A stretch of 30,584 bases of DNA, from the sequence record NC_049395.1; one strand, 5' to 3'. Under the pieces are notes generated by a model that saw nothing but the letters and a program-made list of their open reading frames with translations, was not told where the DNA came from and ran no database searches. The DNA comes from Escherichia phage ESSI2_ev015. Each line of letters begins with the position of its first letter. Position 1 is the first letter of the stretch. The translations under genes were made by a program, and so were the position numbers. Below are positions 16 to 30,584 of this stretch, one piece after another.

Positions 16-48
16 TCGTCGGCAGCGTCAGATGTGTATAAGAGACAG
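16..48 (+). other. Illumina Nextera/Tn5 read-1 adapter with 19-bp mosaic end (library artefact at contig start)
   Basis: Exact string TCGTCGGCAGCGTCAGATGTGTATAAGAGACAG read directly at 16-48; known synthetic adapter sequence. Bases 1-48 should not be treated as biological. Confidence 0.85.
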
Positions 49-236: not shown

Positions 237-1940
237 TCAGGCAATTATATTCTGGTACTTGCTCCGGGTCTGCCCGGCTTTCGTCGCCGTCTGTGTAAAC
301 TCGGCGGCATTGGTTGGAGTCCCAACGGTGGGGTGTGAATGGTTCGCGCATTGCTGCGCCAGTTCTGCCAGTAAATCAATAGTGTCCAGCATCATGGTCA
401 GGGCGTTGATACTCTCGCTGCCAATATGGACAGTTGCCCCCATGACCTGCTGACCGCCAGCGGCCACTGATTTACGCAGTGCGGCAATCTTCTCTGTCAG
501 GCTTTCGCCAACCTCCACGGCTACAGCACCGCCCACTTTAGTGGACTGCTGTCCTGCTATGTCCGTTTCTTCGTTTCCTTCAATACTGGCCAGCCTGTTT
601 CCTTTCACCGCCTGGCTATAATCACCGGCGCTTACCTGCTGGATGGCTCCGGCCAGCAGTGTGGCGGTTCCCAGTACCGTGGTTTTATCCGTGGCTTTCA
701 CCGTGGTTTCACGGCTGACCAGTTCGCGCTGTTCCGTATCGGCTTTTACGGTTCGCGCCATCGATGTTTCGCTGATGGTCTGATCGGTCTGCCTTACCCA
801 GTCGCCCGCCTGAGTCACCCTCTGGGATACTTCTTCCCGCTGCTGCTGCAACTGTTCACCGGGTTTAACGTCCGGCAGACTGGTGCCATCCGGTAGCGTC
901 TGCCTGATAAAAGGTTTATCCGGTCTGCCTCCCGTGAATGCAACCTCAACCAGCGTCCCTTCTGGCGGAAACTGAAACATACCTGAATCATTCCCGGCCA
1001 TTGGTACCGGCAGCGGCACCGCTGAATAAACAGGCGTCTGATTGTCCGGGTTTCCGTCTGCGTCAAGCAGCTGCACGTCCACGGCGTAACGTGGCCGAAA
1101 GGGATCGGCAAAGTTACCGCTTTTTACCGGCTCTGAATGCGCCACGACTCTGGCCATCTTTGGCAAATGAAGCCCGGATGCCAGTTCCGGGTAATGGCTT
1201 TCAATCTGCCGTTGCGCCGGTGTTTTCTGCAAAGGTTTACCCGTTGCGCGGTTTCTCGGCGTCCATGTGATCGCCATCGTGTCATTAGTCAGGTGAACTT
1301 TAGTCACGCGTTCACCGTTCATCTCCACCCCTGGCCGCATAGTCTGGATCACTGGTAATGTCACAGAGTTACCGCCAGCAGCCCCCTGGCTGAACTCTGA
1401 CGGGATTTCTACGTGACGACCGGCAAACAATGACTTTTCTGCGCCGCCGACGTAAAGCGAACCATCAGGCAACTGGTACCAGATGTAATCCAGGATACTG
1501 AACGCCCTGCCCAGATTGTTCAGCAACTGATAACCAGTACCGTTATGGGTAAAATGTGGGATGGGGGTATCGCTGTACTGTGCATCAGGCACACTGACCG
1601 TGATCCCGCTGTTTTCTTCCAACCAGCCCGCAATTTCACGCAAAGTCGGGTGTTGAAACGAACATGGCCACATCCTTTCAAACACACCTACCAGCTCACG
1701 AATGAACAGACGCTGAAAACCGTTTTCTGCGGGCTGCGATCGCTCCACATACCCCGTAAACCAGCGCAAAAGCAGATCGGTATACCCCACATCCAGCCGC
1801 ACCAGTTTTCCGGTGTAATCGGTTGTTGTCTCTGCGGTGATGAAGCCCCGGCCGCAGCTGTTCAGCTCCAGTACCAGGCTGGCATCCACCAGGTGAACTT
1901 CATCCGTTGAAAGGTAAAGGCGTTTTACTGGTTTCATCAT
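237..1940 (-). CDS. Putative baseplate hub/central spike fusion (gpD+gpV-like, VgrG-like)
   Basis: 567 aa, last gene of late operon. Residues ~310-345 (MFQFPPEGTLVEVAFTGGRPDKPFI) resemble the gpV/gp5 OB-fold spike motif; helical C-terminal region ends in HSHPTVGTPTN (His-containing tip). Start ATG overlaps stop of upstream gene by 1 nt. Assignment by motif and position, not by search. Confidence 0.45.
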   Translation of the reverse strand: MMKPVKRLYLSTDEVHLVDASLVLELNSCGRGFITAETTTDYTGKLVRLDVGYTDLLLRWFTGYVERSQPAENGFQRLFIRELVGVFERMWPCSFQHPTLREIAGWLEENSGITVSVPDAQYSDTPIPHFTHNGTGYQLLNNLGRAFSILDYIWYQLPDGSLYVGGAEKSLFAGRHVEIPSEFSQGAAGGNSVTLPVIQTMRPGVEMNGERVTKVHLTNDTMAITWTPRNRATGKPLQKTPAQRQIESHYPELASGLHLPKMARVVAHSEPVKSGNFADPFRPRYAVDVQLLDADGNPDNQTPVYSAVPLPVPMAGNDSGMFQFPPEGTLVEVAFTGGRPDKPFIRQTLPDGTSLPDVKPGEQLQQQREEVSQRVTQAGDWVRQTDQTISETSMARTVKADTEQRELVSRETTVKATDKTTVLGTATLLAGAIQQVSAGDYSQAVKGNRLASIEGNEETDIAGQQSTKVGGAVAVEVGESLTEKIAALRKSVAAGGQQVMGATVHIGSESINALTMMLDTIDLLAELAQQCANHSHPTVGTPTNAAEFTQTATKAGQTRSKYQNIIA

Positions 1941-2485
1941 TAACCCAAAGCATCATTGACGGGCTTCAGCACTTTGCGTTCAAACCACGTCAGTTTTTCT
2001 TCATCTTCTCCGGCAGACTGGCCACCGGACTGTCCCACACTACCGGCAGTCTGTTTTTTTGCGGTCGTCTTACCTGTTGCCCTGGCCTCTCGCTTTTCCT
2101 GCACGCTGATATGTTCCGCCAGTGTGAATGTCACCAGCCAGGCCATTTTCCCGTCCTGCTGGGGTGCATCCAGCATTCCGCTGAACGTTGCTTCACGAAA
2201 ATTAACAGCACGGGCAACTTCATGCGCCACTCGGTACTTCTGACGATTACCACTGGCATCGGTAGCACTGGCCAGTTCAAAAATACGCTTCAGTATTTCA
2301 GGCTGTTTAAAAGGTATTTCACCGCTGATCCGCAGTTCCTTTCCCTTTGCTCCCTGCTCTGATTTTGTTGTGGCACTGGTCTGGCCGGACTGATCTTTAT
2401 CCTGAAATTGCTGTGAAACAGTCACCCGCATGTTTTTCAGCTGGATGGCTTCGCCATTAAGCGCCAGTGTCGGGATCGAAGTCAT
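1940..2485 (-). CDS. Uncharacterized late-operon protein (181 aa)
   Basis: ATG with AAGGGA Shine-Dalgarno upstream; overlaps upstream ORF by 29 nt and downstream gene by 1 nt (translationally coupled). No motif I can assign. Confidence 0.5.
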   Translation of the reverse strand: MTSIPTLALNGEAIQLKNMRVTVSQQFQDKDQSGQTSATTKSEQGAKGKELRISGEIPFKQPEILKRIFELASATDASGNRQKYRVAHEVARAVNFREATFSGMLDAPQQDGKMAWLVTFTLAEHISVQEKREARATGKTTAKKQTAGSVGQSGGQSAGEDEEKLTWFERKVLKPVNDALG

Positions 2486-3182
2486 GAATCATTCCCTTTA
2501 TTCCATCAAGATTATCGCCAACCAGCATCATGGCAGCTGTGTAAACGGCAGACTGCTGCGGAATGTCCTTCACCAGTTCCAGTAACGTGGTACCGGTGTC
2601 TCCGCTGGCAGTAAAAACCCACGCTCTGGCACTCTTCCCCTGTAAATCATTCAGGCCGCTGGCCACATCACTGATAAGCTGGTCACGCAGCTGCGTGAAC
2701 TCGCCCAGCTGTTTTTTCAGCCCTTCGATATCAAACCCGGCACCCGCCGCCTTTTGTGCCTGGCTGATTGCCGCAGCAGATAAAGCTGCCCTGCTGGTTG
2801 GTACAGACAGCGGAATGGACGCAGGTAACGCAGCGGCGGTTTTCGCAGGGATCTGCATCTTTTCAATAGCCAGCGCTGCGGCGGATTGCGCCAGCCGTTT
2901 GACCTGCATGAATGCCGGGGCGGGGAAAATCCCGACCAGGTTATTCAGGCTGGCCATAAAGTTTTCCTGCGTCTGTCCGGTGACCATCATAATCACCACA
3001 TCCGCATTCCCCCCTGTTCCGGCCAGGCGTTCAGCAAGATAGCGAACGGCATTAACCGGGCTGAGATATGCCCCGTTCGCTGTCTGCTGTCCCAGCCCAT
3101 AAATCCACGGATGCGCAGGGACGATCGAACAGTTCAGCGCAGCAACAGAATCCGTGAAGGCCAGACGTGCTTCACGCCACAT
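2457..3182 (-). CDS. Uncharacterized late-operon protein (~241 aa)
   Basis: Track ORF 2457-3218; internal ATG at 3182 (MWREARL...) preferred because it has a GGAGG Shine-Dalgarno and overlaps the tail-fibre-assembly stop by only ~11 nt. No recognisable motif. Confidence 0.45.
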   Translation of the reverse strand: MWREARLAFTDSVAALNCSIVPAHPWIYGLGQQTANGAYLSPVNAVRYLAERLAGTGGNADVVIMMVTGQTQENFMASLNNLVGIFPAPAFMQVKRLAQSAAALAIEKMQIPAKTAAALPASIPLSVPTSRAALSAAAISQAQKAAGAGFDIEGLKKQLGEFTQLRDQLISDVASGLNDLQGKSARAWVFTASGDTGTTLLELVKDIPQQSAVYTAAMMLVGDNLDGIKGMIHDFDPDTGA

Positions 3183-3759
3183 TTCCGGGCACCTCCGGCC
3201 ACACAATTTCCGGCGCATCTTCCGGTTGAATACGGTTCAGTAAAACGCGGTATTTTTTCCATGCGGTAAGCAGCAGTGCTTCTTCTTCGGTCGCCATGTC
3301 TAAATCAACGGCATCCTGCAATGTGGCAATAGCGTCATTGGCCTGTTTAAGCAGTCTTTTCTTTTCGGCGTCTGCCTCGCTGACTAATGCAATTCGCATG
3401 GCCTCCGCATCATCCACCCACGCCTTACCATTCCATTTTTGCCAGGCATTAGCCGGTGCTAACGTGGTTGTCCCTTCCGGGTAAGCGCCTGGCTCGGTGA
3501 TCACCAGTTCATTACCGTTTTCTGTATCAAACACCACCTCACCACGATGATCCTCACGGGAAATCCATCTTTGCTTCTCTGAATCAAAAATTGCCACAAA
3601 CCCCGCTTTGTTTACCGGTGGTTTTATTGTGGTGCAGTTGGCTGGCAGTCCGGTATGCGCAGGTATAAAAGCGTCACCCGAACCAATAAATTCATTCGTG
3701 TCTGAACGCAGGTTATAAACAGTAACTGTTTGATCGGTTTCACTCATTTTAAAAGTCAT
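3172..3759 (-). CDS. Tail fibre assembly chaperone (Tfa/gpG-like)
   Basis: 195 aa directly after the tail fibre gene with TAATG stop/start overlap; size, position and C-terminal region typical of tail fibre assembly proteins. Confidence 0.65.
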   Translation of the reverse strand: MTFKMSETDQTVTVYNLRSDTNEFIGSGDAFIPAHTGLPANCTTIKPPVNKAGFVAIFDSEKQRWISREDHRGEVVFDTENGNELVITEPGAYPEGTTTLAPANAWQKWNGKAWVDDAEAMRIALVSEADAEKKRLLKQANDAIATLQDAVDLDMATEEEALLLTAWKKYRVLLNRIQPEDAPEIVWPEVPGNVA

Positions 3760-5333
3760 TATGCGAGTCTCACTATGTAGTTAAATGCAATGTTCTTAAC
3801 GGTCGTTTCTGCGTTGCCCGACGCGGCAATGGTTATTACATGACTGTGTTCACCTATTGCTACAGTATGAGAATGAGCACCAATACCTACGGTATGATTG
3901 TGTGCGCCAATACCTACTGTATGAGCATGGTTGCCAGCCGACCCCGTATTACCAGTTGTTACGTTATCGCCGCCCTGACCTCTATTGATATCCCCGTTTT
4001 GAGTGGCCTGCCCCTTAACATATGTATGTGTATGCGCACCAGTCGTATTCGTTGTTTTGGTTCCGTAGTCAAATGTACTGGTGGTTTTAGTACCGTAATC
4101 AAATGATGATGTTGCTTTTGTCCCCAAATCCGTACTGGATGCACTGGCGGTGTGGGCATGGGATTTATTGCCATCATCTTCATAGGAGAGAACTGCGCGG
4201 CCGTCTGGTTTCCCTTTGATTGTCTGGCGGCGCATGTCAGTAATAACACCCGATGGATACGCAGCAGCTAGCAAAGGATATGCCGCCGTATTAAAAGACT
4301 GCCCCTGCATAATTGCCCATCCAGTAGGTGGGATATCTGTTGGCCATGGAAGCGGCACACCAACCGGCAGAACGTCACTGCGACTTAAAACGGCCAGTTC
4401 ACCCAGATCCAGACTTTTTCTTGCTTTTACCTTATCGTTAACATCAGCAAGGTTTGCATCCTTACGCAAAAAATCGCTGCTGGCCTGCTGTTCTCCCAGG
4501 CTACCTTTTGGCCGTAAATCCGTGATGTTGCCATCCACATCAATGCTGGCCACAGCAAACACATAATGCTGAACTCCGTTCTGAACGTAATCAGCAAGGT
4601 TTGCAGCCACCGTGATTTTGCTCTGCACATTCCAGACACTGATCAGCGTCCCTGTCCAGCACACATCCAGCCAGACTTTTACCGGCTTTGTCGTCACCGT
4701 AATATTCTGATTCGCAGCCAGTGACGCACGAAGTCCAGCCACATACCCCGTGCCTTTCGTGACAAAAAACTGATTGCCGGTTTTGGCTACCAGATACCCG
4801 TTACCAAAAAACGCCGCCGCGCCATAAATATCTATATTTTCCAGGCGCTGGCGCTCATCCATTCCGGCCATACGCGCAGTAAAATCAATCTGCCAGGTTT
4901 CAGCGGGTGTATTAATCCCGGTTTCCGTTTGTGCGCCGTTGTACTCCATCAGAAACGAGCGGGTCAGCACGTTCCCCTGTTGCCCTTCTTTTGTTTTCAG
5001 TTTCTGCTGTGATGGTGCATGGACAATCATTGCCAGCGTACCGCTGGCCTTATTTAGCAGACCGATCCAGTTAAAGCTGAAATCACCCACATCTGCGCCC
5101 AGTACTACGGAATAGACCACCCCGTTTTCATTCACCACACCCGTGCGGGTAACAGACTGCCGGTGAACAATCTGTGCTGTCGGGGGCAACGCTTCATTGC
5201 GGTCAACAGGTGTATCCGGGTTTAAATTCGGCACACTGGCAAAAACAAATTCGTCCAGTAGTACCGGTTCACCCGTTGCACCCTGCTGTGCTTTCCAGTT
5301 TTCAAACGCCAGTGTGATGGCTGTCTGTGACAT
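3759..5333 (-). CDS. Tail fibre protein
   Basis: 524 aa; C-terminal tandem peptide repeats ([15 protein letters not shown] x3; [14 protein letters not shown] x3) rich in His/Gly/Thr, typical of phage tail fibre distal regions; follows baseplate genes. Confidence 0.75.
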
Positions 5334-5931: not shown

Positions 5932-7108
5932 TCTCAATATTCACCGTCAGTGATTTCAGACGCGGCACGCTCAGTTCGCTGGTAATGTCTCCCAACGAAA
6001 ATGTCAGTGATTCCGTCTGCGCAAAGGTTTTATGAATTTCCCGCCCCAGTTGCGAAAAGGAAAACCGCGAATATGGCCATGTCTTTCTGACGTCATAATC
6101 AGCATTTTCACGAAAGGCACAGCGGATCATGTTTTCAATGCCGCCCTTCAGCGTTTTCACTTCTTCATCACTGAAGTTGTTCAGATTTTTGACATAAACC
6201 GTGACGACCAGATCGTGAAGCGTTTCCGGCATGGGATAGCACTGCATATCATCACCATGCCCGTGGTGTCCCTGCGTGTTGATATAGTCATTCACCGCAT
6301 CCACGAACGGCGCTGATGCCACACCACTGTCCAGTAATAAAAAGGCGTTGGCTGTTCCTGGCCCCCTCGGTGCTTCATGCTCAAAGAAAATCCGATCGAT
6401 ACTCAACCCGGCAACACTGGCGATCATTGAGCGATAAACCGCATCAGTGTGGTAATTCCCCACCAGATTGAACTGATTGCGGCAACGCTCGCGCAGTTCA
6501 TCATCACTTTCCTCGTCAGCCCCCGGCACGGTCAGCCAGTTTTCCTCACTGGCTACATGGCTGATACCGCTGACCGCCACCGGCAGAATGCGGTAATATC
6601 CGGGCGCAAGGTTATACGCGCCCCCGGTGCCGGTGGCTTTCACTGGCAGTAATGCGCTGGCCGCACCGGAAGCGATCACCACATCCTCAGTGGTGGCCAG
6701 CTCATACACTCGCCCGTTAATGCGTTCTGTCTGGATAATCGTCCCGGCTTTGACCGTCACAACGGCCTTTGCATCTTCTTTGAAGAAGCGGATCATCCCC
6801 TGTGCAGCGCTCGCCGGTTTTGCCGTGACGTTCACCGCCCAGGCCAGCAGACGCAACATGCTCCCGCTGGCTGTGGCCACAAACATATTGGCCAGCACGG
6901 TTAACACCAGAACGTCTTTAAGCCACATCACCGGGGCGGTCACAATGGCGGTGATTAATCGCCAGAACGGTGACATTCGGGATGTATTGGTGATAATTCC
7001 CTCATCTGCTGCAATCGCATTGAAGCGTTCCCGCACTTCGGCTTCCGTTACCGGCATACCGCTATCTTTCACCACTTCTTCAAAATCAACCTGCGGTTTT
7101 TCCGTCAT
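5924..7108 (-). CDS. Baseplate J-like protein (gpJ / Mu gp47-like)
   Basis: Track start is GTG; ATG at 7108 (MTEKPQVDFEEV...) has AGGTGGA Shine-Dalgarno and an ATGA overlap with the upstream stop. ~394 aa, position and size fit baseplate wedge J. Confidence 0.55.
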   Translation of the reverse strand: MTEKPQVDFEEVVKDSGMPVTEAEVRERFNAIAADEGIITNTSRMSPFWRLITAIVTAPVMWLKDVLVLTVLANMFVATASGSMLRLLAWAVNVTAKPASAAQGMIRFFKEDAKAVVTVKAGTIIQTERINGRVYELATTEDVVIASGAASALLPVKATGTGGAYNLAPGYYRILPVAVSGISHVASEENWLTVPGADEESDDELRERCRNQFNLVGNYHTDAVYRSMIASVAGLSIDRIFFEHEAPRGPGTANAFLLLDSGVASAPFVDAVNDYINTQGHHGHGDDMQCYPMPETLHDLVVTVYVKNLNNFSDEEVKTLKGGIENMIRCAFRENADYDVRKTWPYSRFSFSQLGREIHKTFAQTESLTFSLGDITSELSVPRLKSLTVNIENE

Positions 7109-7434
7109 AAATCCACCTGCGCAGAGATCCCGCCAAAATCGTATGTACTCGCGGTTACCCACAGCCGCTTCTGACTTTCTTCACTGATTTCCACCGTACC
7201 CGGCACAATGCGTTCATCATCTTCAATCAGTAATTCCATGCGGGTAAAAATATCCGCTCTCATTGTCGGGCTACGTTCGGCAATTAATTCCGTCGCTAAC
7301 CCACTTTCAATAATGGAATGAATAATGTCCTGCCCGATACTTTTTCGGTTATTACATAATTCAGGTTCATTACCGGTATTCAGAACAAAGTCACCGCCCT
7401 GAATCAGCAAATCGATATAAAGAACATCACTCAT
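7105..7434 (-). CDS. Small baseplate protein (gpW / gp25 / Mu gp46-like)
   Basis: ~109 aa; ATG at 7434 overlaps tape-measure stop (ATGA) with AGGAG upstream; immediately precedes the J-like gene as in P2 W-J. Confidence 0.45.
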   Translation of the reverse strand: MSDVLYIDLLIQGGDFVLNTGNEPELCNNRKSIGQDIIHSIIESGLATELIAERSPTMRADIFTRMELLIEDDERIVPGTVEISEESQKRLWVTASTYDFGGISAQVDL

Positions 7435-9398
7435 GCGCCAAGCTCCTGCCATTCCATAAGCTGGGATGGAGAAAGTGCTTCTTTGGTATGGAAATGCACT
7501 TCACCAATTTTCCGGCTGTTATCGGTTACGGATTTACTGTTGCTGCTGATTGTTTTGCTGATACCACCTTTATCCACACCTTTTAAATCACCACCCGTTG
7601 ACAGTGTATTTCCGGTTAATGGCTGCGTGGTTTCACTGGCCAGTGAAATATCCACGCCGGGAATTTTATTCAGTTTCTGAACAATCCAGTTCCACGACTT
7701 AAGAAATCCCCCTTTGATTGACTTCCAGACATTATCAAACAGCGACATAATGCCGGTGGCCATTCCCTTTAGCGCCTCAGACGGTGAAAATCCTGTCAGC
7801 AAAGAAATAAAGCTGTTCCATCCTTCACTGATATATTGCCAGGCTGAAGCAAAGATCCCCGCCAGCCATTTCACCACGGCGGCACATGTCTGGAAGGCTT
7901 CGGTATTCACCACCGCTGTTTTTATCGTGTCCCAGTGCTTAACCAGCAGATAACAACCGGCAACCAGCAGTGCAATGGCACCAATCACAAGCAGGATCGG
8001 CCAGCTCATCAGGTTGATACCAATTCCGGCCATTATTGCGGCCATGCGTACCGCCAGTAACGCACCGCGCAAGAACTTCAGCGTGGTATTCCAGGCGATT
8101 ACCGCTATTTGTGCCAGCCAGACAGTGGCCGTGTAGATTTTAGTAACCGCCGTTAACGCCACCCAGACCCCGCGCAATCCCATCATGATGAATCTGGATA
8201 CCCCCATCACGATATTGGCCACCGCACCCACGGCGGCAAAGCTCAGTAATGCCATCGACGCATAACCAATCACACGGGCAATGTTAGGAAATAACTGCAT
8301 CCAGCGGGCAAAGGTCTGCCCCATATCAGCCAGGCGATTCAGAACCGGATACAGCACCGGGATCAACGTCAGTCCGATCACGGTTTGAATGGCTTTCAGA
8401 ATTTGCACAAAGCGATCCCACGGCTTAACCATTTTTTGTGCCATTTCCTGGGTACGCTTCAGGCCGTCCGCGCCGCCCAGTTCGGTGATGTTCCGCTGAA
8501 GTAACGCGACATTGCCGTAAAGATGTTTAACCACTGCCGAACTGTCACCAAAGGCTGCATCCAGCTCCGCCTGGGCTTTCAGGTTCCCTTCAAGGCTTTT
8601 GCCATATTTGCCCTGCAACTTGATCAGCATTTCAGGCATGGACAGCATTTTGCCGGTAGAGTCAGTAAAGGACAGCCCCAGCTTTTTAGCGCCATCAATC
8701 GCACCGGTCATAAACCCTTCATAGGCGCTGCTGGCTTCCGTTCCCAGCGTCCGCTGAAGTTGCCCCAGCACGGCCAGCTGTTCATCCAGCCCCACGCCGT
8801 AGTTAGTCCCGACACCGCGCGCACCTTCCATCAAATCCTTGATAGTGGCCATTTCTGTGCCAAAGGTTTTGCGCATATAAACCATCTTGCCCGCCAGCTG
8901 TTCGGCAAATTCAACCTTACCCAGTCTGGCCGCATCGGCGGAAAAGTTACCGAACATCTGCCCCATAAATTCCGCCGTGTCCGCCGCAGTGGACTTGAGC
9001 GCAAACGCCAGGGTATTGGCGACTTTCGTCACCTTCGGCAGCTCATTACCCGTCAGTCCGGCAATGGAAGCGTTAATATTTTCCGTGGATCTAACGAACT
9101 CCACCGCGCTTGCGCCATAGGTTGTACTGAAACGCAGGGCATCACGCTGAACTGTCTTAAGCGCGGAATCATCGATCCCTTTTGCGGCGGCATCATTCAG
9201 CGCGTCATACATTTCAATTGCCGGTGATAACGCGCCTTTGATCGCCATCCCGACACCGGCCAGCGCCACCGCGCCGCCGCCAATCTGCATAAAGGCCGCT
9301 TTTGATTTTTCCGCAAAGCCGGTGACGTTACCCTGCGCCTGTTTTAACGGGCGGGATAATTTATCAATCAGGCTTAATGTAAAATCTAATTGTTTCAT
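7431..9398 (-). CDS. Tail tape measure protein
   Basis: 655 aa, Ala/Gly-rich helical N-terminal half plus hydrophobic segments (e.g. LLSFAAVGAVANIVMGV); lies directly downstream of the frameshifting chaperone pair. Confidence 0.8.
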   Translation of the reverse strand: MKQLDFTLSLIDKLSRPLKQAQGNVTGFAEKSKAAFMQIGGGAVALAGVGMAIKGALSPAIEMYDALNDAAAKGIDDSALKTVQRDALRFSTTYGASAVEFVRSTENINASIAGLTGNELPKVTKVANTLAFALKSTAADTAEFMGQMFGNFSADAARLGKVEFAEQLAGKMVYMRKTFGTEMATIKDLMEGARGVGTNYGVGLDEQLAVLGQLQRTLGTEASSAYEGFMTGAIDGAKKLGLSFTDSTGKMLSMPEMLIKLQGKYGKSLEGNLKAQAELDAAFGDSSAVVKHLYGNVALLQRNITELGGADGLKRTQEMAQKMVKPWDRFVQILKAIQTVIGLTLIPVLYPVLNRLADMGQTFARWMQLFPNIARVIGYASMALLSFAAVGAVANIVMGVSRFIMMGLRGVWVALTAVTKIYTATVWLAQIAVIAWNTTLKFLRGALLAVRMAAIMAGIGINLMSWPILLVIGAIALLVAGCYLLVKHWDTIKTAVVNTEAFQTCAAVVKWLAGIFASAWQYISEGWNSFISLLTGFSPSEALKGMATGIMSLFDNVWKSIKGGFLKSWNWIVQKLNKIPGVDISLASETTQPLTGNTLSTGGDLKGVDKGGISKTISSNSKSVTDNSRKIGEVHFHTKEALSPSQLMEWQELGA

Positions 9399-9843
9399 TC
9401 AGTGCCTTTAAATGCTTTTGCCACACCATTGGCCACGGCGATCCCCGTATATTCCCAGTGCCGATTATCCAGCCATATAGCGGCTGCAATATCGTCAACA
9501 GAGTCCTGACCATGCGGTAAATAATGACGGCGTAGAATTAAATATTGTTCGAGTCCATTTCTTTCAATTTCATGGACTCGCTTTGTCAGTTTTTTACTTC
9601 AATTTCCAGTTCTGGCGCATAAATATCATTTACTTTGCCAACCAGTTGAAGTGCAGCACCCGGACGCTTTAATACTTCGGCCAGTGCTTCTTTACTTTCC
9701 GTTGCCACAATTCGCGTCAGATAGTTATGTGCAGGGGCAACTTTATTATCCATTGCCATTTCATTAATAAATTTGTTGTAGGCGGTCTGATTTGGCTCAA
9801 AAACAATATCAACACCACAAACACACAGTTTAATTTGTTCCAT
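9395..9843 (-). CDS. Tail assembly chaperone, -1 frameshift extended form (P2 gpE+E'-like)
   Basis: Slippery A_AAA_AAC at 9589-9595 (- strand) at the end of the short ORF; the -1 frame is open for 64 further codons (LTKRVHEIERNGLEQYLILRRHYLPHGQDS...KAFKGTE) and stops at a TGA overlapping the tape-measure ATG. Read codon by codon. Confidence 0.6.
9586..9843 (-). CDS. Tail assembly chaperone, short form (P2 gpE-like)
   Basis: 85 aa (track start is GTG at 9846; ATG at 9843); ends at a slippery heptamer immediately upstream of the tape measure gene. Confidence 0.65.
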   Translation of the reverse strand: MEQIKLCVCGVDIVFEPNQTAYNKFINEMAMDNKVAPAHNYLTRIVATESKEALAEVLKRPGAALQLVGKVNDIYAPELEIEVKN

Positions 9844-10129
9844 CACTCATACTCTCTCTTAAATTAATTTCGTCCACTAACTGATTATGACGCGCAGCAC
9901 ACTGGCCATAAATTTCAAGATAAATCGTCATTAATTCTGCTGCGTCTTTACCCGTGGCACCATTCAGGCGCGGCAGCTGCGTGGCGCATTTAGTTTTCAG
10001 GTTTTCCTGATAACGCACGTTCGGTACCGGCTGCGGCGCTGTTGTACATGCTGACAAACTCATCAGACAGGCAACGATTAGTAAAAACGGGCTTAAGTAT
10101 TTCCGTGCGTATCTCACGCGGTGCCACAT
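9830..10129 (-). CDS. Outer-membrane spanin lipoprotein (Rz1/LysC-like)
   Basis: 99 aa in a different frame, starting inside the Rz-like gene and running past its end; N-terminal signal peptide with lipobox LSAC (…FLLIVACLMSLSAC). Confidence 0.55.
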   Translation of the reverse strand: MWHRVRYARKYLSPFLLIVACLMSLSACTTAPQPVPNVRYQENLKTKCATQLPRLNGATGKDAAELMTIYLEIYGQCAARHNQLVDEINLRESMSDGTN

Positions 10130-10328
10130 TTTTTAACGCCTCCAGTTTATCTTCCAGCGCTCTGGCCGAATCACTGGCAATGCCCTGCATTACTTTTCGC
10201 GATTCATTACCGGCCACCTGCGCCGCTGTATTGATTGCCAGCTCTAAGCTGTCACGCCGCCAGTCAGCGGTCAGCCAGCCCCAGACAAACGCCAGCGCCA
10301 CCACAACCAACCACTGCCCGCTGCTCAT
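9990..10328 (-). CDS. Inner-membrane spanin (Rz/LysB-like)
   Basis: 112 aa, N-terminal transmembrane helix (WLVVVALAFVWGWL) then charged helical region; ATGA overlap with endolysin stop. Confidence 0.6.
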   Translation of the reverse strand: MSSGQWLVVVALAFVWGWLTADWRRDSLELAINTAAQVAGNESRKVMQGIASDSARALEDKLEALKNVAPREIRTEILKPVFTNRCLSDEFVSMYNSAAAGTERALSGKPEN

Positions 10329-10669
10329 CAGCGCACCCCGTTATGTTCCAGACTGAAATGATTGCCATCCGGTCTGGATTTGAAGCGCCCGCCCCAGGAA
10401 CCACCCAGTGATTCCCAGTATTCCCCCAGTGGCAGATAATCTTCTGTGCGGGTTTTATATTCGCCCTTCACGAACAGATTAAAATCCACAGCCAGACGCA
10501 GAGTGTGCAGACTGTTAGAAATACCGCTGCCTTTCTTCGCATTCAGCGCAGCCTGTTCTGGTGTGCGGTACGCTTCACCAAACGTCAGCCACATGCCATT
10601 TGCATTGGCATACTGAATTAACAACGCAATCATTGATGTAAACCGTTGCTGTTTTTCACTCAGGGTCAT
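10328..10669 (-). CDS. Endolysin, M15/VanY-like zinc peptidase
   Basis: ATG at 10669 (MTLSEKQQ...) with GGGAG Shine-Dalgarno; H...D...H arrangement (SLHTLRLAVDF ... DGNHFSLE) typical of small M15 peptidase endolysins. Track ORF upstream extension has no start signal. Confidence 0.65.
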   Translation of the reverse strand: MTLSEKQQRFTSMIALLIQYANANGMWLTFGEAYRTPEQAALNAKKGSGISNSLHTLRLAVDFNLFVKGEYKTRTEDYLPLGEYWESLGGSWGGRFKSRPDGNHFSLEHNGVR

Positions 10670-10958
10670 TTGTTTTGCTCCCGTTCTGTTTTCCCGCTGC
10701 GCGTCTGCGCAGCCACACTTCCACCGCCTGATAACCGGCAATCCCCAGCGCCGCCCCCAGCCCCTGAATGGCCAGCGGGCTGGCATCCGGGATCTGAATC
10801 AGCACCGCCCCTGCCACCACTGAAACCAGACTGCCCAGGATCACGCGACCGGCAAACAGGCGCGGCGTGATGGGGTCATTACTGGTCAGCACATTGCCGA
10901 TGGCAATCAGTGCGCCAATGATCAGCAGTGAATAAAGGCTCTTTTCATGCTCCTGCAT
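10656..10958 (-). CDS. Holin
   Basis: 100 aa with two to three predicted transmembrane segments and a charged C-terminus; immediately upstream of and overlapping the endolysin. Confidence 0.6.
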   Translation of the reverse strand: MQEHEKSLYSLLIIGALIAIGNVLTSNDPITPRLFAGRVILGSLVSVVAGAVLIQIPDASPLAIQGLGAALGIAGYQAVEVWLRRRAAGKQNGSKTNDPE

Positions 10959-17256: not shown

Positions 17257-19032
17257 ATGGCTAAATACTCTGAAGAATTAAAAGGCGTTGTTCGCGCACT
17301 TTATCTGCGCCGCTATACGCCAAAGGAAATCGCATCTGAATTAAATCTGCCGAATGCGCGGATCGTTTACTACTGGGCGGAGAAATACAGCTGGGCGGAT
17401 TTGCTCAGTTTTGAAAGCACAGAGGAAGCAATTGAACGCCGTTACCAGCTGCTGGCCAGCCGCGATAACAAAACCGATCTCGACCTGAAAGAAATGGACA
17501 TGCTCATTGCTCATGCCACGAAACTGCGTGCGCAGAGTAATAAACACAAAGAGAAAATGGCCAGCGGTCAGAATTCAGGGCAAGCAGCTGTGCGGGACAA
17601 GAATGACGACGAACCGCGCAGCAAACGGAAATACAAGAAAAACGATATTTCCTCGCTGACGCAGGAGGACTTTGACGCATGGGCTGAGGAACATCTTTTT
17701 GAATATCAGAAACACCTGCGCAATAACATTGGCCAGCTTGTCAGGAATATCCTGAAAAGCCGCCAGATCGGTGCAACCTGGTATTTTGCGTTTGAAGCGT
17801 TTGAAAACGCGGTGATGACCGGCGATCCGCAAATCTTTCTGTCAGCATCAAAGGCTCAGGCTGAAGTGTTCCGGTCTTACATCGTGAATATTGCAGAGCA
17901 GTATTTCGGTATTACGCTGACCGGCAACCCGATCCGCTTAAGCAACGGCGCAGAACTGCGTTTTCTCTCCACCAACAAAAACACCGCCCAGTCCTACAGT
18001 GGCCACCTGTACTGTGACGAATATTTCTGGGTGCCAAACTTTGCAAAACTTAACGAAGTGGCCAGCGCAATGGCCACACATGACAAGTGGCGCACCACCT
18101 ATTTTTCAACGCCATCGGCAAAAACGCACCAGGCGTACCCGTTCTGGACGGGCGATGAGTGGAAACAGGGCAGTAAAAAACGTGCGGCCATTAAATTTCC
18201 GTCCTTTAACGAAATGCGTGACGGCGGGCGACTCTGCCCGGATGGGCAATGGCGCTACGTCATTACGATGGAAGATGCCATTGCAGGCGGTTTCAACCTG
18301 GCAAACATCGAAAAGCTTCGCAACCGCTACAACGACGCCACTTTTAACATGCTCTATATGTGCGTGTTCGTTGACAGCAAAGATTCCGTTTTCAGCTTTT
18401 CCGACCTGGAAGCCTGCGGCGTTGAAGTCGACACCTGGCAGGATCACAACCCTGATGCAGCCCGTCCATTCGGTGACAGGGCAGTGTGGGGCGGCTTTGA
18501 CCCGGCTCGCAGCGGGGATTTGTCCTGTTTTGTCATCATCGCCCCGCCGATGCTCGCCGTGGAGAAGTTCCGCGTTCTGAAGGTGATTTACTGGAAAGGC
18601 ATGAACTTCCGGTACCAGGCAAAACAGATCGAGCAGTTGTTCAAAAAATATAACTTCACTTATCTGGGGGTGGACGTTACCGGCATTGGCCAGGGTGTTT
18701 TTGACAACATTCAGCATTTTGCCATGCGTGTGGCCGTCCCTATTCGTTACGACCTGAACACCAAAAATAAGCTGGTACTGAAAGCGGTGGATGTGGTGGA
18801 AAGCCAGCGTATTGAGTGGGATAAAAACCTGAAAGAGATCGCGGCCAGCTTTATGTCTGTGCGCCGAACCACCACACAAAGCGGCAACGCCATGACGTTT
18901 GTCGCTGACCGCAGCCAGGATACCGGCCACGCAGAGGCATTCTGGGCGATTACCCACGGTCTGCATAACGAACCCCTTAACTATGAAAACAAACCGAAAT
19001 CCCGCTGGGGTGTAAGGAAAGAGGCAGCATGA
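17257..19032 (+). CDS. P: Terminase large (ATPase) subunit, gpP-like
   Basis: 591 aa (P2 gpP is about this size), followed by portal with ATGA overlap; divergent from O as in P2. Confidence 0.85.
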   Translation: MAKYSEELKGVVRALYLRRYTPKEIASELNLPNARIVYYWAEKYSWADLLSFESTEEAIERRYQLLASRDNKTDLDLKEMDMLIAHATKLRAQSNKHKEKMASGQNSGQAAVRDKNDDEPRSKRKYKKNDISSLTQEDFDAWAEEHLFEYQKHLRNNIGQLVRNILKSRQIGATWYFAFEAFENAVMTGDPQIFLSASKAQAEVFRSYIVNIAEQYFGITLTGNPIRLSNGAELRFLSTNKNTAQSYSGHLYCDEYFWVPNFAKLNEVASAMATHDKWRTTYFSTPSAKTHQAYPFWTGDEWKQGSKKRAAIKFPSFNEMRDGGRLCPDGQWRYVITMEDAIAGGFNLANIEKLRNRYNDATFNMLYMCVFVDSKDSVFSFSDLEACGVEVDTWQDHNPDAARPFGDRAVWGGFDPARSGDLSCFVIIAPPMLAVEKFRVLKVIYWKGMNFRYQAKQIEQLFKKYNFTYLGVDVTGIGQGVFDNIQHFAMRVAVPIRYDLNTKNKLVLKAVDVVESQRIEWDKNLKEIAASFMSVRRTTTQSGNAMTFVADRSQDTGHAEAFWAITHGLHNEPLNYENKPKSRWGVRKEAA

Positions 19033-20090
19033 GTAAAAAGAAACGCTTTGTTAAGCGCGACCAGCGCGGCGACAAATCAAAAAAGATGAGCATTATCACA
19101 TTCGGCAAACCTGAACCGGTTCTGACTACCGGCACAGATTACCGTGATATCTGGTACGACAATGCCGCCGATCACTTCACCCAGCCGATTGACCGGCTGG
19201 CACTCGCACAACTGATTAATCTTAACGGTCAGCACGGCGGCATCATTCACGCCCGTAAAAACATGATTGTTTCAGACTACCAGGGGGGCGGGCTTATTCA
19301 CGACCAGCTGGAAGCGGCAGCGTTTGACTATATAACCTTTGGGGATATTGCGATTGCCAAAATTCGTAACGGCTGGGGCGATGTGATCGCACTTGAACCC
19401 TTGCCCGGTCTGTATATTCGCCGCCGCAAAGTCAGAGATAACGCGCTGGATAAGCCCGGCGACTACGTGGTGTTACAGGAAGGGGAACCACAGGTATGGC
19501 CAGAAGAAGATATTATCTTCATCAAAATGTATGACCCGCAACAGCATATCTACGGACTGCCGGACTACATCGGCGGTGTGCATTCCGCGTTACTTAACAG
19601 TGAAGCGGTCATTTTCCGACGCCGCTATTACCACAACGGTGCGCACACTGGCGGTATTCTTTATACCCGCGATCCCAGCATGACGGACGAAATGGAGGAA
19701 GAAATTGAACAGCAGCTGCGTGACAGCAAAGGGATCGGTAACTTCTCCACCATCCTTGTAAACATTCCTGGTGGAGACGGTGACGCCATCAAATTCATTG
19801 AAATGGGGGATATTTCCGCGAAGGATGAATTTGCCAACATCAAAAACATCAGCGCCCAGGACATTCTGAACGCGCACCGTTTCCCTGCTGGCCTCGCCGG
19901 TATTGTTCCGCAGAACACTGCCGGACTGGGGGATGTTGAAAAGGCTGAACGCATTTACAAGAAAAGCGAAATAGCCCCCATCCAGCGCCGTTTCATGCTG
20001 GCCGTTAACAACGATCCCGAAATACCGGAAAGGCTACACCTTAACTTTGATTTAAGTTACACAGAATCAACGGATAAGGGTGCGGCATGA
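19029..20090 (+). CDS. Q: Portal protein, gpQ-like
   Basis: 353 aa immediately after P with AAGGAAAGAGG Shine-Dalgarno; size and position match the P2 portal. Confidence 0.8.
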   Translation: MSKKKRFVKRDQRGDKSKKMSIITFGKPEPVLTTGTDYRDIWYDNAADHFTQPIDRLALAQLINLNGQHGGIIHARKNMIVSDYQGGGLIHDQLEAAAFDYITFGDIAIAKIRNGWGDVIALEPLPGLYIRRRKVRDNALDKPGDYVVLQEGEPQVWPEEDIIFIKMYDPQQHIYGLPDYIGGVHSALLNSEAVIFRRRYYHNGAHTGGILYTRDPSMTDEMEEEIEQQLRDSKGIGNFSTILVNIPGGDGDAIKFIEMGDISAKDEFANIKNISAQDILNAHRFPAGLAGIVPQNTAGLGDVEKAERIYKKSEIAPIQRRFMLAVNNDPEIPERLHLNFDLSYTESTDKGAA

Positions 20091-27298: not shown

Positions 27299-28359
27299 TG
27301 GGCATCAGAAAACAGCCGGACGGGAAATGGTTGCTGGACTTTTACCCGGAAGGAAAACCCCAGGGAAAAGCCAGCAAGCGCATCCGCAAGACGTTCTCCA
27401 CCAAAGGCGAGGCGCTAGCCTACCAAAATCACATTATGGAAAACGTCCATGTAAAGCCCTGGCTTGACGGTAAAGAGGATCGGAGAAAGCTACGCGACTT
27501 AGTAAACCAATGGTTCGATGAACATGGTGTGACGCTTGACGATGGCGAAAAACGTAAAGGCGCAATGGAATTTGCGTGTCAAAGCATGGGTGATCCGCTG
27601 GCGCATGAATTTGACGCCACGATGTTTTCGCTTTATCGCAAAAAACGTTTATCCGGTGAAATATCCAGAACAGCGCGTGTAAAACAAGTCGCTCCCAGAA
27701 CCATGAATTTAGAACTGGCCTATTTTCGTGCCGTGTTTAATGAGCTTAAGCGCTTAGGACATTGGAAATCTGAAAACCCCCTGTCTAACGTTCGCCCCTT
27801 TAAATCTGAGGAAGCTGAACTGGCTTATTTGGAACATGATGAAATCGAACGATTGTTATCCGAATGTTCGAAAAGTCGAAACGCCAGCACTTACTGGGTT
27901 GCATGTTTATGCCTGATAACCGGCGCTCGCTGGGATGAAGCGGAATCATTAACGACTAAGCAAATCAGAAACCTAAAAGTCAGCTTTTTTAAAACTAAAG
28001 GGAACAGGAACAGAACTGTTCCAATCAGCCAGGACTTTTATGACGCATTGCCGAAACCAGAAAAACCAGGGCGTTTTTTTACACCCTGCTATTCGGCCTT
28101 TCGCAAAGCCGTAGAGCGTGCGGAACTCGACTTACCTGATGGCCAATTGTCACATGTGCTACGACACACTTTCGCCAGTCACTTTATGATGAACGGCGGG
28201 AACATTCTGGTTTTAAAAGAGATACTGGGACACACTGACATTAAAATGACCATGCGTTACGCGCATTTCGCTCCAAGCCATTTGCAGGAAGCCATAACGC
28301 TAAACCCTTTGGGACAAAATGCCCCTTTTCTGTCCCCTCAGGACTCAAACATCCAATAA
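27298..28359 (+). CDS. int: Tyrosine-type integrase
   Basis: 353 aa; C-terminal catalytic region HVLRHTFASHFMMNGGNILVLKEILGHTDIKMTMRYAHF (R...H-x-x-R...Y signature); adjacent to the att core. Confidence 0.9.
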   Translation: MGIRKQPDGKWLLDFYPEGKPQGKASKRIRKTFSTKGEALAYQNHIMENVHVKPWLDGKEDRRKLRDLVNQWFDEHGVTLDDGEKRKGAMEFACQSMGDPLAHEFDATMFSLYRKKRLSGEISRTARVKQVAPRTMNLELAYFRAVFNELKRLGHWKSENPLSNVRPFKSEEAELAYLEHDEIERLLSECSKSRNASTYWVACLCLITGARWDEAESLTTKQIRNLKVSFFKTKGNRNRTVPISQDFYDALPKPEKPGRFFTPCYSAFRKAVERAELDLPDGQLSHVLRHTFASHFMMNGGNILVLKEILGHTDIKMTMRYAHFAPSHLQEAITLNPLGQNAPFLSPQDSNIQ

Positions 28360-28432
28360 CATTCAATAATATTCGTTGTGTAACTTTCTGATTTATCTGT
28401 AAGTTATTGTTTTTAAATGATGGTGCATCGTT

Positions 28433-28477
28433 CTCATAATCGCTTGGTCGCTGGTTCAAGTCCAGCAGGGGCCACCA
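28433..28477 (+). tRNA. 3' 45-nt fragment of a tRNA-Ile (CAU anticodon, ileX/ileY-like) = prophage att core copy
   Basis: CTCATAATCGCTTGGTCGCTGGTTCAAGTCCAGCAGGGGCCACCA: anticodon loop, T-arm (GGTTCAAGTCC) and acceptor 3' strand with CCA, but no 5' half upstream; matches my recollection of E. coli tRNA-Ile2. 74 bp downstream of the int stop. Confidence 0.6.
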
Positions 28478-28506
28478 AATTTTAGCTTTAAAATCATATA
28501 ATTAAA

Positions 28507-28531
28507 CCACTTCTAACGGAGTGGTTTTTTT
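28507..28531 (+). terminator. Rho-independent terminator downstream of the tRNA fragment
   Basis: Hairpin CCACTTC-taac-GGAGTGG followed by TTTTTTT. Confidence 0.55.
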
Positions 28532-28695
28532 GTTTATAGTGGTCAGTGTCCCCTTTTTGTCCCCTCACTTTCACCCACACTCATCTATACCTCAGTTGTT
28601 AGCACTTCACCGAACCATGACGATTGAACGCTTTGCGCTTTTTTTACATACTGTTTCAATCTCATTTGCCAATAATTTTTAGTCAGGATGACAAT

Positions 28696-29322
28696 ATGAC
28701 TTCGTACAATGAACTGAAAGAATGTATCCGCCTTGAAGTCATTGGCCATGACAAATCCTTTTCATGGCGTAAAGCGTTACTTCGTACCCGACGCAACCAG
28801 AAGAAGCACTTCCTGTTCTGGTGGCGTATTGCTTCATGGCTCTATGCCCAGAATAGTAAGTTCAAAAAGCGCATTGCCCGCAGGATTGAAAACCGCCTCA
28901 AGTACCGGCACAGCGTTGATATTTCGCTGTCATGCAAAATCGGCAAGGGTTTAAACATTGCTCATCTAAACGGCATTGTGATTACTGACAATTGCGTGAT
29001 TGGTGATTTCGCCGACCTGAAGCAAGGCATCACCATAGGGTTACGCACCGACAGTGCCGACGCGATGATAGTCATTGGTGATCGTGTTGATATTGGCTGT
29101 AACTCGTCCATTCTGGGCGGCAAGGTTACGATCGGAAACAATGTCACCATTGGTGCGCATTCGCTAGTGCTTCAGAACATCCCCAGCGACACCGTTTATA
29201 AAAACAAGATCACGCCAGTGTATACATCCAAACTACCGCAGACGGAATATCAGGAAAAGCAGCCTTTTGTCACTGGCAATGCGACAAAAGAAGCGTCCCG
29301 TTCCGCAGAAGCAGTGCTGTAA
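28696..29322 (+). CDS. Hexapeptide-repeat acetyltransferase, serine acetyltransferase (CysE/WcaB)-like
   Basis: Track start is TTG; ATG at 28696 with AGGATGA upstream. Left-handed beta-helix hexapeptide repeats (IGKGLNIAHLNGIVITDNCVIGDFADLKQGITIG...) preceded by a WRIASWLY-type helix as in the CysE family; low-GC region. Confidence 0.65.
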   Translation: MTSYNELKECIRLEVIGHDKSFSWRKALLRTRRNQKKHFLFWWRIASWLYAQNSKFKKRIARRIENRLKYRHSVDISLSCKIGKGLNIAHLNGIVITDNCVIGDFADLKQGITIGLRTDSADAMIVIGDRVDIGCNSSILGGKVTIGNNVTIGAHSLVLQNIPSDTVYKNKITPVYTSKLPQTEYQEKQPFVTGNATKEASRSAEAVL

Positions 29323-29531
29323 TTTCGCTGAACAAATTTCAGTTGTGAAGATTTCATAAATTTACGTGCAGCCCGCGCCAGTTCTTACAAGCGGGCTTAT
29401 CTCTATAATCTCTGGCTTACCACGATCCACACCGCCTAAAATCTAAAGTTGATATGCAGCCTATGAGGATAGATAATCAGTTTGTGGCTTGTTTTACGTT
29501 ATAACTAAATCTTATTAAAAGAGGTATTTAA

Positions 29532-29846
29532 ATGAACTTAAACAATAACCCTACAGTAAGCCAACTCTCACAACTAATCTCTGTTTGCGACGATAACGCA
29601 GGTCATCATATTCTTTGGGTATCTAAATCTGGCGATGTAGCAGTTACACAAATAAATGATTTGTCTCCAATTGGCTTTGAAGAAAACACCCCATCAATGG
29701 CAATGCGTTATGAAACTTTCCAACGTGGAAATGACTATGTTGGAAAAAATGCAGCAGAAGATGCAACTCACATGGAAAGACTACTTAGAGATTTGCTAAA
29801 CGAATGGCCATTATATAACGGCAATCGTGTACGGTACATTGGCTAA
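29532..29846 (+). CDS. Hypothetical protein (104 aa), first gene of an AT-rich two-gene cassette
   Basis: ATG with AAGAGG Shine-Dalgarno; AT-rich codon usage distinct from the prophage; no recognisable motif. Confidence 0.5.
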   Translation: MNLNNNPTVSQLSQLISVCDDNAGHHILWVSKSGDVAVTQINDLSPIGFEENTPSMAMRYETFQRGNDYVGKNAAEDATHMERLLRDLLNEWPLYNGNRVRYIG

Positions 29847-29861
29847 TAAAAAAGGTGGGGT

Positions 29862-30230
29862 ATGGCAACCAATTGTTATGTAAGAGTTTTAGATAATAAC
29901 ACTAAACGTGTCTATGATGTTGGGCCATTTATTAATAGCGGTAATGAGGCCTTCTCTGGAGCAGATAGCGCCATAAATTGGATTTACAAACAAATTGGCT
30001 TAGTCAAAATACAATATCCAGAATCAACTTTAATAAAGCATAAATGGGATTATGTTAAAGATGATTTTTATGGCCCTACTGCTGATGTAAAAGTTGAAAT
30101 ATCAAACTTTATTTTTGAGATTTTTAAACTGCTACCTGCTGACACTCAAAATGTAATTAATGAACAAATTACAGATAATTTGCCCACATGGTACAAAGAT
30201 GAAAAAGAAAGTCATATTGATGAAAATTGA
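29862..30230 (+). CDS. Hypothetical protein (122 aa), second gene of the AT-rich cassette
   Basis: ATG 15 nt after the upstream stop with AAGGTGG Shine-Dalgarno; no recognisable motif. Confidence 0.5.
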   Translation: MATNCYVRVLDNNTKRVYDVGPFINSGNEAFSGADSAINWIYKQIGLVKIQYPESTLIKHKWDYVKDDFYGPTADVKVEISNFIFEIFKLLPADTQNVINEQITDNLPTWYKDEKESHIDEN

Positions 30231-30300
30231 TTACCTATTGGCGCACTTAAAGTGTAGGTATGCTAATTTCACTTTCTGAATTTAATCTAATCCCCCTAAA

Positions 30301-30331
30301 ACCCGCACCACAACTGGCATTGCGGGTTTTT
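30301..30331 (+). terminator. Possible terminator after the two-gene cassette
   Basis: Stem ACCCGCA/TGCGGGT with a long 13-nt loop followed by TTTTT, ~70 nt after the stop at 30230; loop length is atypical. Confidence 0.3.
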
Positions 30332-30584
30332 CCTCCTACACATTGCCTTCGACATTTGATCTTCTCCACTCCACAAAAAATACAATTTATTATTGTATTT
30401 CAATTGCTTGCCTTTCCACTTAGATCCTTTACAGATCCTCTAAACTGAAAAATGCTGAAATTCTTTTCAATCTTTTCAGTTCCTGTTCTTTGGCAAGCAG
30501 CCAACCGTGGCGCGGTCTGGCGGTGCTGTTTGTAGAAAAATAAAACTGAAAAAATTTCCAGATCCAGAAACCGCAGGCGGGTGC

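Follow-up and report, generated by a model that had tools for sequence, protein, structure and literature searches.

We analyzed a 30,584-nucleotide stretch of DNA, the sequence record NC_049395.1 of Escherichia phage ESSI2_ev015 (the whole of it is referred to below as the window), with regard to the minus-strand gene at positions 237–1940. The open reading frame (ORF) of this gene starts with ATG and encodes 567 amino acids followed by a stop codon. The TAA of the upstream gene, which encodes a protein of 181 aa, and the ATG of our gene overlap (ttaATGATG); thus, translational coupling of the two genes is implied. A strong intrinsic terminator of the minus strand was found at positions 208–224 (GCCCGCATAATGCGGGC followed by TTTTTT). 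It is composed of a 7-bp GC-rich hairpin with a T-run, read from 224 to 208 and located 13 nt past the stop codon, indicating that the gene is the last one of the late operon. On the grounds of the ORF list, PHROG 2258, and HP1 synteny, the whole coding sequence was assigned as an orthologue of HP1 orf35; very probably, it encodes the whole central spike complex of the phage tail—a gpD-like hub, a gpV-like spike, and a tip—in a fusion of the HP1 orf35 type.

The protein matched PHROG 2258 ("baseplate protein") end to end (residues 2–567 against positions 1–544 of the 544-position profile, E = 2.3e-276). Its homologues formed 1219 clusters and were present in 73 phage records, mostly of HP1-like Peduoviridae. 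In Escherichia phage ESSI2_ev129 (Peduoviridae, Quadragintavirus), the counterpart was 99.1% identical and carried no annotation beyond "putative phage gene". Identity with HP1 orf35 (UniProt P51739) was 40% over the full length, and the orf33–orf34–orf35 order was conserved. Both proteins are encoded by the last gene, after homologues of orf33 and orf34, and share the layout of hub, oligonucleotide/oligosaccharide-binding (OB) fold, beta-helix, and C-terminal His-x-His (HxH) motif, although the phages belong to different genera, ours being a Quadragintavirus with an enterobacterial host. The protein clearly belongs to the HP1 orf35 family (PHROG 2258), which also includes K139 orf39, Kappa kp45, and the homologues from HP2, phiO18P, and F108. 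No member of the family with an experimental structure was found by PDB sequence searches with phmmer and the family profile. The orf35 homologue of Salmonella phage SW5 is labelled "head completion protein". The fusion of the gpD and gpV homologues of HP1 was reported in 2023 on the basis of HHpred (PMC10612066, Table S1, footnote d); hence the reading of the gene as a hub–spike fusion is correct but was already stated for HP1.

The N-terminal domain (residues 1–228; positions 1257–1940, minus strand) was delimited as a compact hub of the gp27/gpD/Mu gp44 type from AlphaFold2 and Foldseek results and from its standalone relatives. In the full-length AlphaFold2 model, it had a predicted local distance difference test (pLDDT) score of about 97 and comprised a beta-barrel (residues 1–82), an alpha/beta subdomain (83–170), and strands at 192–227. 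Residues 1–250 modelled alone, as a monomer from an 86-sequence alignment, gave a pLDDT of 94 and a predicted template modelling (TM) score of 0.87. Foldseek comparison of this model with the PDB returned gp27/gpD-type hubs or VgrG-type hub-spikes as all 39 of the 39 best matches, with E values from 3e-12 to 4e-5 and query-normalised TM-scores of 0.47–0.67. Among them were AlgoCIS (7aef_q, 3e-12), the phiTE hub (9cuy_X, 1e-10), Mu gp44 (1wru, 3e-9), T4 gp27 (1k28_D, 1.5e-5), and the pyocin R2 hub (6u5h_A, 3.6e-5), as well as proteins of the Streptomyces contractile injection system (CIS), MuSo2, P1, Pvc8, VgrG, E217, Pa193, and Milano; the BFVD matches bore the names "Phage protein D", "43 kDa tail protein", and "Late control GPD". 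Hub-only targets gave alignments of equal length with the N-domain and with the full-length query (294 vs. 290 columns for 8eon_E), and therefore the hub corresponds to the N-domain alone. Judged by the predicted structure, residues 1–228 have a gp27-like hub fold.

An exhaustive search with residues 1–250 yielded 255 representative clusters; among the best 150 of these 255 representatives, 91 were standalone proteins of 200–262 aa and only 18 were long fused forms, which shows that residues 1–228 are an independent evolutionary unit. At 228 residues, the domain is smaller than the solved hubs of about 285–390 residues (resolved chains of 285–366). Pfam, including Phage_GPD (PF05954), matched nothing in residues 1–250 nor in the 86 members of the N-domain family; phmmer and the family profile gave only repeat-protein noise for the N-domain among PDB sequences, and hhalign of the N-domain profile with the single sequence of P2 gpD gave a probability of 0.9%. 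An earlier note on this DNA, made from the sequence alone, had left the N-terminal ~300 residues unassigned, as a hub or an added enzyme, and proposed a separate structural search of this half. The region indeed lacked a sequence assignment but is actually made up of a 228-residue domain and a linker of about 30 residues; the 39 best Foldseek matches were all hubs or VgrG-type proteins, and no enzyme family was matched, so that the choice falls on the hub.

The spike part begins with an OB-fold of the gp5/gpV type (residues 259–350; positions 891–1166, minus strand), identified by Pfam, the family profile, and Foldseek. Phage_base_V (PF04717) was detected at residues 309–345 with 22.8 bits against a gathering cut-off of 23.8, and in the precomputed table this family is carried by one close homologue (P0110). 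The model contains five strands over residues 261–348. The family profile matched the OB-fold and beta-helix segment of VgrG1 (E of about 1.5e-4 to 3e-4), and in the Foldseek search with the full-length model, the spike part matched Mu gp45 (9ki1_V, 2e-4) and the R2 pyocin spike PA0616 (4s37, 5e-3). BLASTP of the protein against P2 gpV found nothing. The OB-fold is followed by a triple-stranded beta-helix needle with gp5_C-type repeats (residues ~361–507; positions 420–860, minus strand), assigned by phmmer and Pfam: residues 481–576 of the T4 gp5 beta-helix aligned to residues 413–508 (E = 5e-7), Gp5_C scored 22.3 bits, above its cut-off of 20.4, and Gp5_trimer_C was matched too. The C-terminal half is thus recognizable as a spike from sequence comparisons.

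This closeness of the beta-helix in sequence to T4 gp5, the "tail-associated lysozyme", together with weak matches to PHROG 694 and PHROG 430 ("baseplate hub and tail lysozyme"), would suit a gp5-like tail-associated lysin whose N-terminal part is an added peptidoglycan-degrading enzyme and not a hub. We consider this very unlikely: the T4 gp5, PHROG 694, and PHROG 430 matches are confined to the beta-helix (residues 379–553), neither a lysozyme nor a peptidase nor any other enzyme family was found anywhere in the protein by Pfam and NCBIfam, the N-domain is predicted to fold as a gp27-type hub, and the hub, linker, OB-fold, helix, and tip account for all residues. In T4, the corresponding parts are three separate proteins, gp27, gp5, and gp5.4. 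The gp27 fold resembles the N-domain and the gp5 beta-helix that of our protein, but gp5 carries a lysozyme domain in the interval between the OB-fold and the beta-helix, absent here, and the T4 tip is a separate PAAR-like protein.

The C-terminal tip module (residues 508–567; positions 240–419, minus strand) was delimited by the model (pLDDT 86–94) and by conservation. It is predicted to consist of a helix (513–533), the loop H534-S-H536-P-T-V-G-T-P, and a second helix (545–566). A clean hydrophobic a/d heptad pattern (I511, L514, L518, I521, A525, A528, A532) is evident in the sequence of the first helix. The residues H534-S535-H536 (translation HSH; positions 333–341, minus strand) are a putative Fe-binding histidine cage. 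An HxH motif lies within the last 70 residues in 130 of the 135 long homologues, and the module is conserved in the alignment in fused and standalone spikes alike. In P2 gpV, the HxH (H197/H199) of three chains cages an Fe ion in the apex, and an HxH near the C-terminus has been used in the literature to recognize spikes that do without a separate PAAR/gp5.4 tip. The P2 gpV segment LHTHKHPGDSGG resembles the family consensus SHTHPxTGxP, both being of the HxH-P-G-rich kind; by this analogy, the tip is probably metal-binding. No PAAR-like ORF was found by Pfam and PHROG scans of the sizeable ORFs of the window. Since the HxH tip is kept and a PAAR ORF is missing from these scans, we infer that hub, spike, and tip are combined in one chain. 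Two fused homologues from the representative search (P0137 and P0138) end in a Cys/His-rich segment (...CPFTGKPHVDGSTTVFAG) and do not possess the helix-HxH-helix; these ends may represent a built-in PAAR-like tip, a second route of tip fusion.

Iron sites of the HxH type are also known in tail fibres, where they keep the register, and the gene lies downstream of fibre and fibre-assembly genes; it might accordingly be taken for a receptor-binding tail fibre or tailspike. However, family scans identified a separate fibre with a collar domain (3759–5333, minus strand) and its assembly protein, a chaperone (3172–3759, minus strand), and in fold our protein matches only hub and spike proteins of the tail axis, which makes a fibre extremely unlikely.

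The full-length model had a pLDDT of 79, with high values for the hub and the last 60 residues, moderate values for the OB-fold, and low values for the beta-helix. Foldseek aligned it over about 550–690 columns with VgrG, Afp8, Pvc8, AlgoCIS, and Streptomyces CIS spikes (E values from 4e-18 to 1e-13); these alignments include 9jg9, 8gra, 4mtk, and 9mlp and indicate that our protein, like VgrG, joins the hub, OB-fold, and beta-helix in one chain. [quoted passage not shown] Vibrio phage XM1 was tried as a solved structural relative and rejected: its hub (gp13) and spike (gp14) are separate, and it is not HP1-like.

VgrG and the Afp8/Pvc8/Alg8-type spike proteins of extracellular CIS have the same layout as our protein, but identity with them is only 10–15%. 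The VgrG hub of about 370 aa is longer by about 100 residues or more than the hub of 228 aa found here; its blunt end is capped by a separate PAAR protein, whereas our protein ends in the HxH module; and VgrG is encoded in a T6SS neighbourhood (Hcp, TssBC, PAAR), whereas our gene is located in a phage genome of the P2/HP1 type. The protein is VgrG-like in function and architecture without being a member of the VgrG family. Capture of a true T6SS VgrG by the phage, for which the best full-length structural matches and weak matches to TIGR01646 and TIGR03361 could be quoted, has as slight a chance as a fibre: the NCBIfam scores were far below the cut-offs (15.2 bits vs. 186.4 for TIGR03361; 16.4 vs. 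121.8 for TIGR01646), sequence identity to VgrGs was 12–15%, the gene belongs to a phage late operon with HP1 synteny, and the shorter hub and the HxH tip in place of a blunt PAAR-binding end are differences from VgrG as well.

The same parts in the same axial order are known from P2 gpD (hub, 387 aa) and gpV (spike with an Fe-HxH apex, 211 aa), as well as from Mu gp44 and gp45 and pyocin R2 PA0628 and PA0616, the Mu and R2 proteins being structural matches to the two halves of our protein. P2, Mu, and R2 encode the hub and the spike separately, P2 within two operons, whereas here they form one gene with a hub about 60–160 residues shorter than the P2, Mu, and R2 hubs. Pfam and PHROG scans of the other sizeable ORFs of the window revealed neither Phage_GPD nor Phage_base_V nor PAAR. 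The earlier note had described a single 567-aa ORF as the last late gene, with a gpV/gp5-like OB-fold motif in its middle and a His-containing tip after a helical region, and had proposed a VgrG-like hub/spike fusion, having seen no separate hub and spike genes. The ORF, its coupled start, and the terminator agree with the first point, the Phage_base_V match at 309–345 and the five modelled strands with the second, and the helix at 513–533, H534-S-H536, and the helix at 545–566 with the third; the fusion is borne out by the full-length Foldseek alignments and the hub fold of the N-domain, and the absence of separate genes holds in the above scans. Neither of the two findings that the note had named as telling against a fusion—a non-hub family in the N-terminal half and a separate hub gene elsewhere in the operon—was made.

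The fusion junction (residues 229–258; positions 1167–1256, minus strand) was located by the alignment of fused and standalone forms, by BLASTP, and by a pLDDT of 57–87. It consists of a linker of variable length (about 228–240), followed by a conserved RRQIExxFPELAxGxHLPK, which is the N-terminus of standalone spikes; in the same alignment, standalone hubs stop just past a conserved MxVxW (~residue 225). In Salinivibrio phage SMHB1 (split genes at L002 5983–7391) and Pseudoalteromonas phage ACA2 (split genes at L003 5950–7580), two overlapping genes follow the ORF34 homologue instead of one. BLASTP gave E values of 7e-37, 6e-36, and 8e-24 for the split-half homologues of these two phages. SMHB1 PP_00048 (228 aa) matched residues 5–226 (E = 7e-37), and the SMHB1 spike PP_00049 (243 aa) matched residues 243–567; it lacks most of the beta-helix but retains the OB-fold and the helix-HxH-helix end. 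The ACA2 spike (of the gp48/gp49 pair) covered residues 239–566. Since the split halves match residues 5–226 and 243–567, the fusion is a clean end-to-end one. The split ACA proteins were labelled "cell puncturing device mounting domain" and "tail spike" (PMC10612066). In a neighbour-joining tree of the hub domain, 14 of the 18 fused forms, including our protein, fell into one clade, and three other fused lineages were placed among the standalone forms, a weak indication that fusion or fission occurred more than once.

There is practically no chance that the 567-aa ORF is an artefact, i.e., hub and spike genes merged by a sequencing or assembly frameshift, as the two overlapping genes of SMHB1 and ACA2 and the library adapter at the contig end, hence a raw assembly, might suggest, given that a fused length of 558–568 aa recurs in many independent assemblies of Escherichia, Salmonella, Citrobacter, Enterobacter, and Cronobacter, that HP1, HP2, K139, phiO18P, and F108 have the fused form too, that the linker keeps the reading frame and is conserved in the clade, and that residues 228–261 contain no Met codon to start a separate spike; this conservation in effect refutes it. 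Thus, the merged-gene artefact, the enzymatic N-domain, the fibre, and the captured VgrG were all rejected on the evidence given with each of them.

Several points weigh against a hub, spike, and tip encoded by this one gene. The hub assignment derives from predicted structure, sequence and profile searches having given no link to gpD or to a PDB hub. The Phage_base_V score is 1 bit below the Pfam cut-off, and the beta-helix was poorly modelled in the monomer (pLDDT 38–60), as expected because an intertwined trimer was predicted as a monomer. Helices are predicted around the HxH, whereas the P2 gpV apex is all-beta, and the role of this region as a tip is therefore putative. Finally, a cryptic second hub-like protein may exist among the neighbouring 181-aa and 253-aa proteins, which were compared by sequence alone.

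A hub–spike–tip fusion of this kind could act as follows, by analogy with P2, Mu, T4, and the T6SS as regards trimerization, the forming of a ring, the binding of metal, and release, and according to the model as regards the helical geometry of the tip. Three copies would assemble, and their N-terminal gp27-like domains (residues 1–228) would form a ring, which would cap the tail tube and the tape measure at their distal end and nucleate the wedges, made of the DUF2590/gpW-like, gpJ-like, and gpI-like products of upstream genes. Beneath the hub would sit the OB-folds (259–350), and the chains would intertwine as a gp5-type beta-helix needle (~361–507) terminating in a trimeric coiled coil, at the turn of which three pairs of H534 and H536 would constitute an Fe-binding histidine cage; such a built-in cage would make a separate PAAR/gp5.4 tip unnecessary. 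Sheath contraction would drive the needle through the outer membrane. Because they are covalently joined, hub and spike would leave the tube end together, as one unit, as VgrG leaves Hcp, and the channel would open for the tape measure and DNA.

A further and doubtful possibility, which we put forward tentatively, is that no complete spike complex known from contractile tails is more condensed than this one, which would unite in one chain a minimal hub of 228 residues, the spike, and a tip in which three alpha-helical hairpins would pack into a six-helix bundle with an Fe HxH cage at the turn. If true, it would represent a new structural variant of the apex, common to the fused and split spikes of HP1-like phages. 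The compactness of the hub and the probable helical HxH tip, both deduced from monomer models, appear not to have been described before. The assignment gives a function to a protein that GenBank records of this phage group label "putative phage gene" or "hypothetical protein" or, mistakenly, "head completion protein", and completes the parts list of the HP1-like baseplate, with hub, spike, and tip in one gene. As HP1-like phages demonstrate, a single chain can unite the VgrG layout (hub and spike) with the P2 layout (spike and tip); current understanding is not overturned by this. Close relatives with fused and split forms are a natural system for asking whether the hub–spike linkage matters for assembly or for the release of the spike after contraction, and the same group suits the question of the minimum hub size.

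Immediately upstream, the coupled gene at 1940–2485 (minus strand) encodes the 181-aa HP1_ORF34 "baseplate complex protein" (Pfam PF25759, E = 7.5e-55), preceded by the gene of a 253-aa HP1 orf33-like protein at 2457–3218 (minus strand; PHROG 1677). In the P2 gene order T-U-D, the 181-aa HP1_ORF34 gene occupies the place of gpU before gpD, and it precedes the hub coding sequence in a manner resembling that of U before D in P2. Comparison of a five-sequence profile of the 181-aa protein with P2 gpU by hhalign was negative, as was a profile search of the PDB; a gpU-like identity, the homology not being demonstrable by these means, was dropped, and the Pfam name "baseplate complex protein" was kept. 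The 253-aa protein had no Pfam or PDB match and no hub-like feature in its sequence. The first ATG of its ORF produces a 47-nt overlap with the fibre-assembly gene, and a 241-aa form is annotated in ESSI2_ev129. Both neighbours encode conserved proteins of the baseplate region to which sequence comparison assigned no fold. Homologues of these two neighbouring genes are mislabelled "adenine glycosylase" in SMHB1 and in Yersinia phage vB_YenM_324.

According to family scans of all sizeable ORFs, the window represents a complete temperate myophage of the P2/HP1 type. The large terminase and portal are encoded on the plus strand (17257–20090). The late genes of the minus strand are, in order, those for the scaffold, P2-type capsid, small terminase, head completion, gpR-like and gpS-like proteins, sheath (DUF2586), and tube (HP1 Orf24), followed by the holin, M15 endolysin, Rz/Rz1, tail chaperone, tape measure, DUF2590, Baseplate_J, Tail_P2_I, tail fibre, and fibre-assembly genes; the operon ends with the 253-aa, 181-aa, and 567-aa genes. 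The remaining genes encode the Ogr/Delta activator, GPA replication protein, Dam methylase, CII, CI, and integrase. The DUF2590 protein (115 aa; 7105–7452, minus strand), found by family scan, is encoded immediately after the tape measure, at the position of P2 gpW, the sheath initiator or wedge protein; Pfam did not connect it with gpW or gp25, and it is probably a divergent gp25-like protein. The lysis cassette (9830–10958, minus strand) includes the holin (10656–10958), the M15-peptidase endolysin (10328–10786), and Rz/Rz1-like spanins (9990–10328 and 9830–10129). With the tube gene on one side and the genes of the tail chaperone and tape measure on the other, it lies inside the tail module, whereas the P2 lysis genes precede this module.

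An Illumina Nextera/Tn5 adapter, TCGTCGGCAGCGTCAGATGTGTATAAGAGACAG, was found at window positions 16–48, with an exact mosaic end at 30–48 (0 chance matches expected); it is a library artefact on the contig end and not phage sequence. A plus-strand ORF at 34–453 begins inside the adapter and is spurious. At the other end, downstream of the integrase, the G+C content of positions 28000–30584 was 0.42–0.43, compared with about 0.52 elsewhere; this stretch is probably moron/lysogenic-conversion cargo or flanking host DNA, and a 232-aa ORF within it (28624–29322, plus strand) gave a sub-threshold hexapeptide-transferase match.

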